Of a DNA stretch of 64,000 bases, positions 2,517 to 9,856 are shown piece after piece. This DNA is from a virus, in IMG/VR virus record IMGVR_UViG_3300027631_000002, positions 1-64,000 of that record, one strand, 5' to 3'. The translations under genes and the position numbers were made by a program. How positions within the stretch are numbered: the stretch's first letter is position 1; the number at the start of each line of letters is the position of its first letter. The notes below the pieces were generated by a model that was not told where the DNA came from, ran no database searches, and saw only the letters and a program-made list of their open reading frames with translations.

Positions 2517-3974
2517 TTATTTTTCTAATTTCAAAATTTCTGAACTATTTTTTCTAATCTCTTTACATAATTCTTTATTATTATTTAAAGATTGTCCATA
2601 AGAAGGAATCATTTCTTTTAATTTTTCTGTCCAATCTTCATTCTTAAAACATTTCTCAATTAGATCTAACATAATAGATGTTGCTGTTGATGCACCGGGA
2701 GAGGCACCCAATAAACCAGCAATTGTTCCATCAGCAGAGGTAATAACTTCTGTACCAAACTCTAATATACCTTTTCCTTCACCATCTTTTTTAATAACCT
2801 GAACTCTTTGACCCGCGGTTTCTAAAATCCAATCTTTTGATTTAGCAGTTGGAACATATTCTCTTAAAACCATCATTCTATCTGCTCTAGATTGACGAAC
2901 TTGGTCAATTAGATACTTTGTTAGTGGAATGTTTTTTAAGCCAGCACCCATCATTGGGATGATGTTATTCAATCTAATTGATGTAAATAGATCCCAATAA
3001 GAACCATTTTTAAGAAATTTTGTTGAAAATCCAGCATAAGGTCCAAATAGTAACTCTTTTTTACCATTTATCATACGACTGTCTATGTGAGGAACAGACA
3101 TCGGTGGTGCACCAACTCCGGCTTTACCATATACTTTAGCATTGTGTTTTTCGATAACTTCTAAATTAGTACAACGTAACCATTGACCACTAACTGGAAA
3201 TCCACCATAACCTTCGATTTCTGGAATACCAGATTTTTCTAATAAATGAAGTGAACCACCACCTGCACCAATAAATACAAAGTCTGATTCTATTTTTCTT
3301 TTTTCATTGGTAGATAAGTCTTTAACTTTAATTACCCATTTACCTTCTTTATTTTTTAATTTTTTTACTTCGTGATTAAAATGTAGTTCTACACCATCTT
3401 GTGATTTAAGATAATCAAACATACTTCTGGTTAGATTACCAAAATTCACGTCAGTACCAATTTCATTTTTAGTCGCTGCAACTTTTTGATTTTCTTTACG
3501 ACCTTCCATAACAAGTGGTGCCCAAGATTTGATTGTATCAAAATCTTCTGTGTATTCCATATCTTGAAATAAAGTATTTGGTTTTAAAGTGCTATATCTT
3601 GTTTTTAGGAAGTTTACATTTTCTTGACCCCATACAAAACTCATATGTGGACTTTGTTTAATAAAAAATTCTGGTTTAACAATTAGGTTATTCTTAACTA
3701 AATAAGACCAAAATTGTTTAGATACTTCATACTGTTCGGCGATTTGAATTGCTTTATCTGGATTTATTGAACCATCTGGATTTTGTGGTGTATAGTTTAA
3801 TTCACAGAACGCTGAGTGACCAGTACCTGCATTATTCCAAGCATCGGAACTTTCTGCGGCTGCAGAGTCTAATCTTTCAAAGATTTGTATATTTAATTCA
3901 GGATCTAATTGTTTAAGGATTGTTCCTAATGTGGCACTCATAATTCCAGCACCGATAAGTGTTATATTTTTCAT
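2517..3974 (-). CDS. mqo: malate:quinone oxidoreductase
   Basis: LIGAGIMSATL FAD motif, ESSDAWNNAGTGHSAFCELNYTP, GAPPMSVPHID, AGQRVQVIK and LLGASPGAST. Confidence 0.97.
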   Translation of the reverse strand: MKNITLIGAGIMSATLGTILKQLDPELNIQIFERLDSAAAESSDAWNNAGTGHSAFCELNYTPQNPDGSINPDKAIQIAEQYEVSKQFWSYLVKNNLIVKPEFFIKQSPHMSFVWGQENVNFLKTRYSTLKPNTLFQDMEYTEDFDTIKSWAPLVMEGRKENQKVAATKNEIGTDVNFGNLTRSMFDYLKSQDGVELHFNHEVKKLKNKEGKWVIKVKDLSTNEKRKIESDFVFIGAGGGSLHLLEKSGIPEIEGYGGFPVSGQWLRCTNLEVIEKHNAKVYGKAGVGAPPMSVPHIDSRMINGKKELLFGPYAGFSTKFLKNGSYWDLFTSIRLNNIIPMMGAGLKNIPLTKYLIDQVRQSRADRMMVLREYVPTAKSKDWILETAGQRVQVIKKDGEGKGILEFGTEVITSADGTIAGLLGASPGASTATSIMLDLIEKCFKNEDWTEKLKEMIPSYGQSLNNNKELCKEIRKNSSEILKLEK

Positions 3975-7761: not shown

Positions 7762-8044
7762 TTATCTTTTCATTTCTTCGTTCATCTAAATGAATTTTAT
7801 CTCTCATCAACATTTCAACTGTTAAAGAAATAATACCTCTGTAGTATTCAATTCCTACGTCAGTATCATTTTTAAGTTCTTCTACTATCTGATCTGAGGT
7901 TAAACCTTGTCTACCAGTAATAAATATTCTATCTCCCACTTTTTCATAAGTAGAGATAAGTAAGTCTTTTAATTTTTGTTCTAATGTTATTTCTTCCATA
8001 TGTATTCTTGATTTCCTTGTAAAGACCAATTCATTTTTATCCAT
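7739..8044 (-). CDS. hypothetical protein with C-terminal RNEKI motif
   Basis: Ends RRNEKINELLNKR. Start MDKNE lies just after a TATCTTTG promoter box. Confidence 0.7.
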   Translation of the reverse strand: MDKNELVFTRKSRIHMEEITLEQKLKDLLISTYEKVGDRIFITGRQGLTSDQIVEELKNDTDVGIEYYRGIISLTVEMLMRDKIHLDERRNEKINELLNKR

Positions 8045-8104
8045 GTAGCAAAGATAATAAAAAAATCCCAAAAGAACTAACTTTTGGGATTTTTCTTTCT
8101 AAAT

Positions 8105-8190
8105 GGTGGAGCTCAACCTTCCATTCGCGGGAAGGTCTATCCACCTCGGTTACGTTTCCACGAAGGAAAGAGGCTTGACCGGCACCTGAG
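8105..8190 (-). ncRNA. unassigned GC-rich structured element in the 3' trailer of tRNA-Cys
   Basis: Nested stems GGTGGA/TCCACC and ACCTTCC/GGAAGGT in AT-rich context, followed by a terminator near 8059-8094. Confidence 0.4.
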
Positions 8191-8194
8191 ATAG

Positions 8195-8264
8195 AGGCGG
8201 AAAAAGGAATCGAACCTCTGTGTAGGAACTTGCGGTCCCTCGCCTAACACTCAGCCATTCCGCC
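8195..8264 (-). tRNA. tRNA-Cys(GCA)
   Basis: Acceptor GGCGGAA/TTCCGCC, U73, anticodon arm AGGGA-CCGCAAG-TTCCT, T-loop TTCGATT. Has C33 instead of U33, and no encoded CCA. Confidence 0.85.
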
Positions 8265-8306
8265 ATTTGTTCTACAAAGATAGAACTTTTTTTATATAAT
8301 AAAAAA

Positions 8307-8942
8307 TTATTTTGTTGTTAAAATCAATCTATCTATTCCAAGTGCGAAACCTATCCCAACATCATAGGAACCACCACCACAGATTTGTTTTTGTGCTCCT
8401 AACTCTGGACAAGCAATTTCAAATCCTTTACCACCAGTGTAGTAGTCAAGTCCTCTTGTTGCGTCTAAGTTTACTTCGTAGTTATCAGTTGCTAACTCAA
8501 TTAGTTTAGTTGCAATCTCTAACATTTCATCAGTCATATCTTCAGTTGGATTGATTACTTCAACACCAAATTGCGTGAATTCACGGTAACGCCCAGCTTG
8601 TGGTTTTTCTCCACGAAAACATTGTCCAATGTAAAATAACTTAACGTTCTTTGTCATTTTAAATGTTTCGTTAGCGAGCTGTTGTACGACTGCGGTATAT
8701 TCTGGTGCCAAACAGATGTCTCTGTTACCTCTATCGGTAAAAGTGTACATCATGTTGTTATTTTCTTCACCTACTTTACTAGCAAATGTTTCAGTTAGTT
8801 GAATAACTGGGATCATCATTTCTTGATAACCATAGGATTCCATAATATCAATCATTTGATTTAGTAATCTTCTTTTGTTTCTAGCTGTTTCACCAAAAAC
8901 TATCCTCGTACCTTTGTACGTTTTACTTGTCTTTATCTCCAT
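8307..8942 (-). CDS. hisS: minimal histidyl-tRNA synthetase-like protein (catalytic core only, 211 aa)
   Basis: KGTR, LAPEYT, FRGEKPQAGRYREFTQFGVE, RGLDYYTG, GGGSY and IGFALGIDRL. Ends right after motif 3. The track start at 8981 lies inside the terminator, so 8942 is used. Confidence 0.85.
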   Translation of the reverse strand: MEIKTSKTYKGTRIVFGETARNKRRLLNQMIDIMESYGYQEMMIPVIQLTETFASKVGEENNNMMYTFTDRGNRDICLAPEYTAVVQQLANETFKMTKNVKLFYIGQCFRGEKPQAGRYREFTQFGVEVINPTEDMTDEMLEIATKLIELATDNYEVNLDATRGLDYYTGGKGFEIACPELGAQKQICGGGSYDVGIGFALGIDRLILTTK

Positions 8943-8964
8943 TTTAATAATATATTTTTTTAAT

Positions 8965-8995
8965 AAAAAAGCCCAGATCATTATAATCTGGGCTT
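8965..8995 (-). terminator. attenuator terminator upstream of mini-hisS
   Basis: mRNA AAGCCCAGAT-TATAATG-ATCTGGGCTTTTTT. Confidence 0.85.
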
Positions 8996-9027
8996 ATGTT
9001 TAAATTAGCAATTTTTAAGACATATAC

Positions 9028-9084
9028 TTACGACCCAGATTTCTCTGTGTGATGATGTAGTTTATATGTTGTTTTCATTTTCAT
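9028..9084 (-). promoter_or_regulatory. histidine attenuator leader peptide MKMKTTYKLHHHTEKSGS*
   Basis: Three consecutive His codons. The leader 3' end AAATCTGGGT is complementary to the terminator 5' arm. TATATTTG (-7) box at 9089-9096. Confidence 0.8.
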
Positions 9085-9151
9085 ACTGCAAATATATAAC
9101 TTTTTATTTAATTATACAAGTAAAGTTTAATTTTTCATCAAATATTATTGT

Positions 9152-9856
9152 TTACTCTTTAATTTTATTATCAATTGCCCAATCATTATTAGCAGGGAAA
9201 TATAAATGTGTAGAAATCCCATCAAAGTATATACTACCACTTCCATCTGAAAATGGTGATTGAGAACTCCAAGTTCCACCTATTATAGATGCTATATGAT
9301 TACCTGTACTATCAATAAATGTAGTATTTGATGATGTTACTGATAATAGTAAGTTTGTTTCTGTGTAGCTCATTGGATTTAATGGTGTTGTTGATGGTGT
9401 AAAATTACCATTATATTTTGCAATACCTTTCAAAAAGTGGAAGTTAGTTAAGTAACCATTAAATTTTTGACCAACACCACCACCAATTTGTAAATCACTT
9501 GTATTATCTTCTATTAGTCTGTTATTATTAGCATTAATAACTCTTGTACCATTATAATAAAGTTGTAAAACATTGTTATTTCTAACTATTGCAAAGTGTA
9601 CCCAAGTATTATATAAATTTGATATAGTAGAGAATATATAATCTGGTGAGCCATCTGTCCAAACTGCTAGTACATTTCCTTGAAATTCCTCACTAAATCC
9701 AATTTGATCAGTTGGATTATCACCAACATTAAATAATCTATCAAAACTACCAGCACTTGCTGTCATTTTTTGCCACCATTCTACTGTAAAGTTATTTTTA
9801 GGTGTAGGTGGTGTACCACCACCAGTAAAACTACTTCCTATTATTGATTGTATCAT
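9152..9856 (-). CDS. LamG/concanavalin A-like domain protein, probably virion/tail-associated
   Basis: FTVEWW, WVHFAIVRNNNVLQLYYNG and FNGYLTNFH. Shares N-terminus MIQSIIG with 10797..11909. Confidence 0.8.
   Translation of the reverse strand: MIQSIIGSSFTGGGTPPTPKNNFTVEWWQKMTASAGSFDRLFNVGDNPTDQIGFSEEFQGNVLAVWTDGSPDYIFSTISNLYNTWVHFAIVRNNNVLQLYYNGTRVINANNNRLIEDNTSDLQIGGGVGQKFNGYLTNFHFLKGIAKYNGNFTPSTTPLNPMSYTETNLLLSVTSSNTTFIDSTGNHIASIIGGTWSSQSPFSDGSGSIYFDGISTHLYFPANNDWAIDNKIKE

Follow-up and report, generated by a model that had tools for sequence, protein, structure and literature searches.

A putative histidine-codon leader attenuator upstream of a minimal histidyl-tRNA synthetase gene in a huge-phage genome fragment

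Organization of the locus

The 64,000-nucleotide stretch analyzed here (referred to as the window; positions 1 to 64,000 of the IMG/VR virus record IMGVR_UViG_3300027631_000002) carries on its minus strand a compact arrangement in which a promoter of the Bacteroidota type is followed by a short open reading frame (ORF) with three consecutive histidine codons, an intrinsic terminator and a gene for a 211-amino-acid (aa) catalytic core of histidyl-tRNA synthetase (HisRS), designated here as mini-HisRS. These four components had been listed in this order in a preliminary description of the locus, and all of them were present. We consider it likely, at odds of roughly three in four, that they form a ribosome-mediated transcription attenuator in which the histidine codons of a leader peptide gate expression of mini-HisRS.

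The virus record that contains the window is 179,626 bp long and was estimated to be about 30% complete, and the nearest database relatives of the mini-HisRS ORF belong to two uncultured phages of 634 and 642 kb. The record is therefore a piece of a huge phage genome, and the window a fragment of it. Regarding the host, the evidence supports a Bacteroidota-type bacterium and nothing narrower, so that Flavobacterium, as proposed earlier, was too specific an assignment. The 316 matches to the TAnnTTTG promoter box in the record are about what its base composition would give by our own estimate, and this count is uninformative on the host. For comparison, upstream regions were inspected in a set of 16, then 74 IMG/VR loci together with 80 metagenome loci coding for the same ~210-aa protein. 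These loci, which are related huge-phage contigs carrying the mini-HisRS gene, are named by labels such as L001 and L022.

The promoter consists of a -33 element, TTG (9119-9117, minus strand; TTTG in close relatives), located 20 nt upstream of a -7 box of the TAnnTTTG, Bacteroidota sigma-A type (9096-9089, minus strand). The box ends 4 nt before the ATG of the leader ORF, a spacing that was also found in L096, L097, L024, L037 and L028. Because the corresponding box in Flavobacterium occupies positions -12 to -5 (PMC9723704), transcription probably starts on, or adjoining, the A of this ATG, and the leader ORF would then be read from a leaderless mRNA. Such mRNAs account for 5.5% of the mRNAs in the transcriptome of Flavobacterium psychrophilum, in which evidence for leader-peptide attenuation was also obtained (PMC9723704). 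The leader ORF itself comprises 18 codons and a stop (9084-9028, minus strand; ATG at 9084-9082, stop at 9030-9028), with the proposed regulatory codons, CAT CAT CAC, at 9057-9049 on the same strand. It is followed by an intrinsic terminator (8995-8965, minus strand; -16.8 kcal/mol) with a 12-bp stem and a 3-nt loop (stem 8995-8969) and a run of six T (8970-8965). The mini-HisRS gene (8942-8307, minus strand) starts 22 nt after the T run, a gap in which no promoter box fits.

The combination of these elements is uncommon in the record. A run of three His occurred in 11 of 1437 random short ORFs of the 180-kb sequence, and 4 of the 316 box matches were followed by a short ORF and a terminator. 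The same leader was found in the 96-97% relatives L022, L096 and L176. In an alignment, the block common to four relatives extends from the -33 element through the terminator, with unrelated flanks further upstream; the genes upstream of these close relatives differ although the block from the -33 element is kept. Public metatranscriptome contigs cover positions 8081-8450, 8595-8838 and 9278-9428, none of which includes the leader, and being assembled contigs they carry no transcript ends or levels. Outside the window, near position 134884 of the record on the minus strand, another promoter box coincides in part with the start of an ORF of 8 codons, three of which encode His, and no terminator follows this ORF.

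Terminator, antiterminator and proposed mechanism

Folding of the full leader RNA gave an upstream hairpin plus the terminator (-24.9 kcal/mol, z = -3.1). The upstream hairpin (segment 1:2, the anti-antiterminator; 9069-9020, minus strand) is the minimum free energy fold of this region at -7.8 kcal/mol alone; it encloses the His codons and includes part of the antiterminator segment. Like hairpins involving the His codons were found in L102, L105, L028, L113 and L037. The antiterminator segment is a 10-nt stretch (9042-9033, minus strand) that ends 3 nt upstream of the leader stop codon, within reach of a ribosome positioned there. Its pairing with the 5' arm of the terminator, put at ~9 bp in the preliminary description, was confirmed as a duplex of 9 pairs with -14.3 kcal/mol that was matched by 0 of 500 shuffles. 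Amongst the 95 terminator-like hairpins in the record, this terminator ranked third for 5'-arm bases paired with upstream RNA, a suggestive rank that is notable but not decisive alone.

These features suggest the following course of events. Host RNA polymerase would start at the Bacteroidota-type promoter, and a ribosome would translate the 18-codon leader while the polymerase proceeds. When charged tRNA-His is scarce, the ribosome would stall on the three His codons, the upstream hairpin would melt and the segment 9042-9033 would become free. This segment could then pair with the 5' arm of the terminator, allowing read-through into mini-HisRS and probably on to the tRNA-Cys gene that lies beyond it. 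When His-tRNA is plentiful, the ribosome would instead reach the stop codon and cover 9042-9033, so that the terminator would form and transcription would end. From sequence we infer that the leader is translated, that ribosome and polymerase are coupled, that the switch responds to how far tRNA-His is charged and that the enzyme charges this tRNA through the G-1:C73 pair.

Constrained folding, in which a ribosome was placed on the RNA of the window, gave results in line with this order of events. The antiterminator remained intact with the ribosome on the first His codon and retained 6 pairs with the ribosome on the third, and it was abolished (-0.2 kcal/mol) with the ribosome on the stop codon. 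In L105, L028 and L113 the folds switched completely: the terminator formed with no ribosome, the antiterminator with a ribosome on the His codons and the terminator again with a ribosome on the stop, which in these models is textbook attenuator behaviour. The logic of ribosome-mediated attenuation that had been read into the locus is thus supported, at the level of sequence, by an architecture that recurs, by His codons that are in frame, by pairing arms that co-vary and by constrained folds that switch.

Recurrence of histidine leaders in related phages

Conservation of His leaders upstream of mini-HisRS homologues had been raised as a check on the first interpretation, and it held in part. 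The same gene is preceded by differing His-rich short ORFs in at least six diverged huge-phage lineages, although most homologues stand without a leader. Nearly all loci with an intrinsic terminator just upstream of the gene also carry a His-rich short ORF ending at that terminator, the exceptions being L076, L118, L143 and L161. The leaders vary considerably in composition. A three-His run plus one further His is found in L102, L103 and L128 and likewise in L105 and L109; His and Phe codons alternate in L028; L113 has 4 His in 13 codons and L037 has 3 His in 14 codons. One common leader, in which three His stand amid Lys, Phe, Ser and Trp codons, occurs in L042, L044, L130 and L116. L097 and L098, which are 90% relatives, have two His codons and a shifted stop, and lineage E (L001, L029, L031, L104, L106 and L110) has 1-2 His codons. 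L001 additionally encodes a conserved 65-aa Lys/Arg-rich protein between the leader-terminator and mini-HisRS (L001:2745-2945), with homologues in L104, L106, L108 and L110.

Histidine was the most enriched residue of these peptides. In nine pooled leaders it accounted for 28 of 155 residues (18%), against a share of 4.0% among random short ORFs and 1.4% across the proteome (P ~3e-11). CAY triplets were in frame 28 times versus 9 and 9 times in the other two frames (P = 1e-4), a bias that points to a coding signal and not a purely structural one. The His content also followed the genes downstream, with His making up 10.5% of leader residues where the gated unit holds a His gene and 1.7% otherwise (Fisher P = 5e-4).

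The pairing between leader and terminator recurred as well. In lineages A, B, C and E the start of the best duplex between the leader and the 5' arm precedes the stop codon by 9-14 nt, and in lineage D it follows that codon by 2-5 nt; the shuffle p was at most 0.014 in all but two cases. Leaders paired more strongly with their own arm (-11.3 kcal/mol) than with the arms of other lineages (-7.0 kcal/mol; P = 6e-6), and comparison of L042 with L116 revealed compensatory changes in the pairing segments. Outside the His codons and the pairing segments, neither peptide nor RNA was conserved between lineages.

A signature search of IMG/VR for a His run together with both pairing segments, which was low-powered, returned three matches, of which only a known relative was real; the other two were rejected as GC-rich chance matches inside coding DNA. 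This outcome is in keeping with a module specific to the mini-HisRS gene. No such leader was found before the GluRS-like and LeuRS-like genes of this phage, which are likewise stripped-down, and the device is therefore not used for all of its synthetases.

Evidence against the attenuator and alternative explanations

Several observations weigh against a His-specific attenuator. About four in five homologue loci have no leader, and the gene there follows other genes or tRNAs. The leader of lineage E is otherwise conserved and has only 1-2 His codons, and in L097 and L098 a 1-nt insertion places the stop just before the terminator while the third His is replaced by Asn. The stop codon of L042 lies 34 nt past the antiterminator segment, and in its fold model the placement of the ribosome makes no difference. 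L096 has an interrupted T run. The His codons sit in a pairing segment, so that constraint on RNA structure could contribute to their retention. Finally, before the 3' arm is transcribed, the best fold of the window's nascent RNA is the antiterminator plus an inner hairpin (-13.1 kcal/mol), which means that in the window, as in lineage E, the ribosome-free nascent RNA is already optimal as antiterminator despite the -7.8 kcal/mol of the 1:2 hairpin around the His codons. A terminator-first outcome was clear in L105, L028 and L113. In the fold models, termination without translation in the window and lineage E would for this reason have to be kinetic, through trapping by the first hairpin.

Some of these observations are also what would be expected of a general attenuator that reports translation status and is not His-specific. 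In such a device any slowed or absent translation of the leader would lead to read-through, and the His codons would be incidental or a by-product of a C-rich strand pairing with a G-rich segment. The location of the His codons within pairing segment 1, the apparent functioning of lineage E with 1-2 of them and the preference of the window's untranslated nascent RNA for the antiterminator all fit this explanation. It does not readily account for His being the most enriched residue across lineages whose segments differ in sequence, or for CAY triplets that are strongly in frame. The His codons also track His genes in the gated unit, and sister leaders located before tRNA arrays carry other codons that match those arrays (see below). 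We therefore regard a general attenuator as unlikely.

The region could also be a small gene or small RNA in its own right, as a promoter, ~120 nt and a strong terminator are equally what a small-RNA gene consists of. Expression of mini-HisRS would in that case depend on leaky read-through or on a phage promoter that was not recognised. Beyond the His codons and the pairing segments, however, the peptide and RNA sequences are not conserved between lineages. In every case the unit immediately precedes a mini-HisRS gene or tRNA units related to His. The segment mimicking the 3' arm of the terminator is located at the stop codon, and the distance from the T run to the start of the gene is only 22 nt. 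These observations make a separate small-RNA gene quite improbable.

Direct, ribosome-free sensing in the manner of a T-box or of HutP/TRAP, in which uncharged tRNA-His or an RNA-binding protein would read the CAY triplets and stabilise the antiterminator, could draw on the frequent 3- or 6-nt spacing of these triplets and on a UGGG in the antiterminator segment of most lineages that is complementary to the CCCA 3' end of tRNA-His, but it is very improbable, as the leader has no T-box or other Rfam match, a T-box Stem I needs far more room than the ~90 nt upstream of the terminator, the CAY triplets lie in frame inside an ATG-to-stop ORF in every lineage, and the UGGG is accounted for by pairing with the terminator arm.

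The minimal histidyl-tRNA synthetase

The gene placed under the proposed His-codon attenuator encodes a 211-aa protein that matched Pfam tRNA-synt_His (4.6e-28). It also matched the hisS family TIGR00442 (1.7e-49), with 168.9 bits against a cut-off of 286.75, and more distantly the hisZ family TIGR00443, with 111.7 bits against a cut-off of 271.65, so that the ORF is closer to hisS. The family profile aligned to residues 6-140 and 232-315 of a 420-aa HisRS, and mini-HisRS accordingly has neither the insertion domain nor the anticodon-binding domain. The earlier label of a catalytic-core-only HisRS was upheld by profile and fold, with the correction that the insertion domain is missing in addition to the anticodon-binding domain. 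No HGTP_anticodon domain or separate anticodon-binding domain was found elsewhere in the 180-kb record, and PHROGs contained no informative family for mini-HisRS.

The ORF contains class II motifs 1-3 and the His-specific motifs with their catalytic residues, which is the combination that identifies a histidyl-tRNA synthetase. In an alignment of 75 sequences, the active-site residues of motif 2, of the His-specific motifs and of motif 3 were invariant, among them the Arg/Glu of motif 2, the Arg-Gly-Leu-Asp-Tyr-Tyr motif, the Gly triplet and the Arg of motif 3. An AF2 model of the protein (pLDDT 90.5, pTM 0.88) had E. coli and T. thermophilus HisRS as its best PDB matches (E ~1e-17, TM 0.83-0.86). 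A homodimer was predicted with a score of 0.87 versus 0.00 for the best control, and three runs agreed in at least 98% of contacts with a partner pLDDT of at least 86. Amongst proteins solved as pairs 20 of 30 attained this score mark, and amongst those solved as single chains 1 of 23 did. The predicted pairing may only mirror the likeness of the model to solved HisRS dimers.

Two other assignments were considered and rejected. HisZ was dismissed on account of the score below the TIGR00443 cut-off, the invariant catalytic residues and the lack of a HisG in the 180-kb fragment. A longer, 224-aa ORF starting inside the terminator loop was discarded since all homologues begin at a conserved Met 13 codons later.

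Mini-HisRS belongs to a natural, widespread and mostly viral family of ~210-aa proteins, with ESM Atlas clusters of 185, 52 and 194 members. A related locus is present in a cultured phage: in the 469-kb genome of Sinorhizobium phage Phosso (L003; PV764938), positions 2609-3549 contain, in this order, a tRNA-His gene, a small ORF and a homologue of 196 aa that carries the annotation histidyl-tRNA synthetase. Phosso thus offers a tractable system for work on the enzyme.

E. coli HisRS catalytic fragments and 'urzymes' of 119-145 residues are described as having been assayed for histidine activation (PMC3060492), and a natural core of 211 residues is on these grounds plausibly active. The urzymes are engineered, whereas mini-HisRS represents a natural, conserved family whose activity is predicted. 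Mini-HisRS could serve to test what minimum of a class II synthetase is enough to charge a tRNA specifically.

Charging of tRNA-His

Two arginines of motif 2, together with a Gly-containing loop contributed by the other subunit, hold G-1 in the solved HisRS-tRNA complex (PMC4357726). The anticodon is a weak identity element for HisRS, and small acceptor helices serve as substrates (PMC4357726). When these contacts were mapped on the alignment, one arginine and the Gly loop were invariant in the mini-HisRS family; the other arginine was mostly Lys and varied in some members. In many phage contigs tRNA-His genes directly adjoin the mini-HisRS gene, and 28 of 33 distinct phage tRNA-His genes have G-1 with C73. 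The suggestion that an enzyme might charge through the acceptor alone therefore appears reasonable, as the columns for G-1 contact are largely kept and the neighbouring phage tRNA-His genes encode G-1/C73, and charging through the acceptor stem alone is plausible.

Two findings speak against this part of the interpretation. The insertion domain clamps the acceptor stem in the solved complex (PMC4357726), and its absence from mini-HisRS makes tRNA charging uncertain. Additionally, there is no tRNA-His gene in the 180-kb fragment. Taken together, we put the chances that mini-HisRS charges tRNA-His at about even.

Nearly all phage tRNA-His genes are preceded by A and T ahead of the G-1 (e.g., L001:109-183, L058:1314-1403 and L078:2023-2098), and this conserved context may matter for RNase P processing.

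Codon-matched leaders before tRNA arrays

When the fetched loci were scanned generically for terminators preceded by short ORFs with residue runs, further units were found in which the codons of the leader mirror the tRNA genes, and sometimes the mini-HisRS gene, directly downstream. Such units were located at L032:2329-2406, L001:1185-1259, L111:2556-2630, L078:1118-1216 and L058:706-789, and also at L087:1237-1299, from L084:313 onward, from L007:968 onward, and at L119:23-103 and L033:1401-1454. In L032, L001 and L111, Ser and Arg codons stand before tRNA-Arg and tRNA-Ser genes, and in L119 His and Pro codons stand before tRNA-His and tRNA-Pro. The most elaborate correspondence is that of L078, whose leader has four different CGN codons along with Trp, Asn and His codons; the genes behind it are those for tRNA-Trp, mini-HisRS, two tRNA-His, four tRNA-Arg that each have a different anticodon, and tRNA-Asn. 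Mini-HisRS was found inside such a unit together with tRNA-His in L058, L078, L084 and L087.

In an unbiased version of this comparison, every terminator directly upstream of a tRNA gene was taken along with the nearest short ORF regardless of its composition. The downstream array could read a fraction of 0.232 of the leader codons, compared to 0.143 +/- 0.025 after permutation, and 0 of 5000 permutations reached the observed fraction. These units look like multivalent leader-peptide attenuators, as judged from their codons and terminators. They share with the window the same cassette of short ORF, antiterminator and terminator, occur in the same phage group and have codons that match the downstream genes. 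The unit of the window differs in being monovalent (His only) and in that its first gated gene encodes a protein enzyme and not a tRNA.

The His leader could be one module of a wider demand-sensing system in which giant phages gate minimal synthetases and tRNA arrays by codon-matched attenuators. Each part would then be produced only while ribosomes are held up by a shortage of its cognate charged tRNA, for example following depletion or cleavage of host tRNAs. In the phage studied here, the switch would report on the supply of His-tRNA and induce an anticodon-blind, insertion-less HisRS dimer that charges tRNA-His via G-1:C73 alone. We advance this broader proposal tentatively, with somewhat less than even confidence.

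Comparison with known attenuators

Leader-peptide attenuation is a textbook bacterial mechanism of amino-acid operons and a few synthetase genes. Its classical examples include hisL of the E. coli and Salmonella his operon and pheM of E. coli pheST, the latter operon being the classic case of an attenuator-controlled synthetase. The unit described here resembles both in its short ORF with consecutive cognate codons, in its predicted hairpins 1:2, 2:3 and 3:4, which would exclude one another and between which the position of the ribosome would decide, and in its intrinsic terminator, and it resembles pheM in that the regulated gene encodes an aminoacyl-tRNA synthetase. It differs from hisL and pheM in lacking sequence or Rfam similarity to them, in having three His codons rather than seven and in being carried by a phage. 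Its leader ORF is probably leaderless and preceded by a Bacteroidota-type promoter, and its target is a 211-aa core instead of a full synthetase.

The Rfam His_leader family (RF00514) gave no match on the leader, and no T-box was matched in Rfam at E up to 1. Permissive Rfam matches on the leader, to Thr_leader (23.5 bits) and to a Streptococcus sRNA, were below gathering and driven by the terminator hairpin, and were rejected. The only RF00514 match was located at 7993-8099 on the opposite (plus) strand, with 26.9 bits against a gathering threshold of 49 and E = 0.14. It lies over the hairpin at 8096-8059 and is almost certainly a hairpin-driven chance match.

The nearest published case is that of the bacilli, in which His leaders were predicted before a hisS paralogue (hisS*) and before hisZ (Naville and Gautheret 2010, PMC2965389). 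Those leaders likewise combine a short ORF containing a stretch of His codons with a premature terminator before a HisRS-family gene. Unlike the window's unit they are chromosomal, belong to Firmicutes and precede full-length paralogues or HisZ, and they are predictions only, with no phage context. In F. psychrophilum, structured 5' UTRs (untranslated regions) were described on synthetase mRNAs and attenuators on amino-acid biosynthesis operons (PMC9723704). The promoter type and the use of leader-peptide attenuation are the same there; the difference is that neither a synthetase gene with a His leader nor an element from a phage was described (PMC9723704).

A full-text literature search, whose coverage was incomplete, returned no description of this kind of attenuator in phages, nor of one on their synthetase or tRNA genes, in agreement with the statement in the preliminary description that no attenuator-controlled phage aminoacyl-tRNA synthetase was known. 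The mechanism proposed here is classical leader-peptide attenuation, and what appears to be new is its phage setting and a minimal HisRS as the target. If the interpretation is correct, phages monitor the charging state of host translation and adjust their own supply of synthetase and tRNA to need, which bears on why translation genes are so numerous in giant phages. The element is also short and self-contained.

Downstream unit

A tRNA-Cys(GCA) gene (8264-8194, minus strand) follows mini-HisRS and has its own promoter box at 8282-8275. No terminator was found between 8307 and 8264, and mini-HisRS and tRNA-Cys share one terminator-bounded unit, which is closed by a predicted terminator at 8096-8059 on the minus strand. 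Between tRNA-Cys and this terminator lies a GC-rich stretch of ~95 nt (8097-8196, minus strand) with a 6-bp hairpin, a T-loop-like 7-nt loop and a CCA end. ARAGORN made no call and Rfam gave no match in this stretch. It is 100% identical in the closest relatives (L004, L022, L096 and L176) and, going by these features, may encode a non-canonical tRNA-like RNA.

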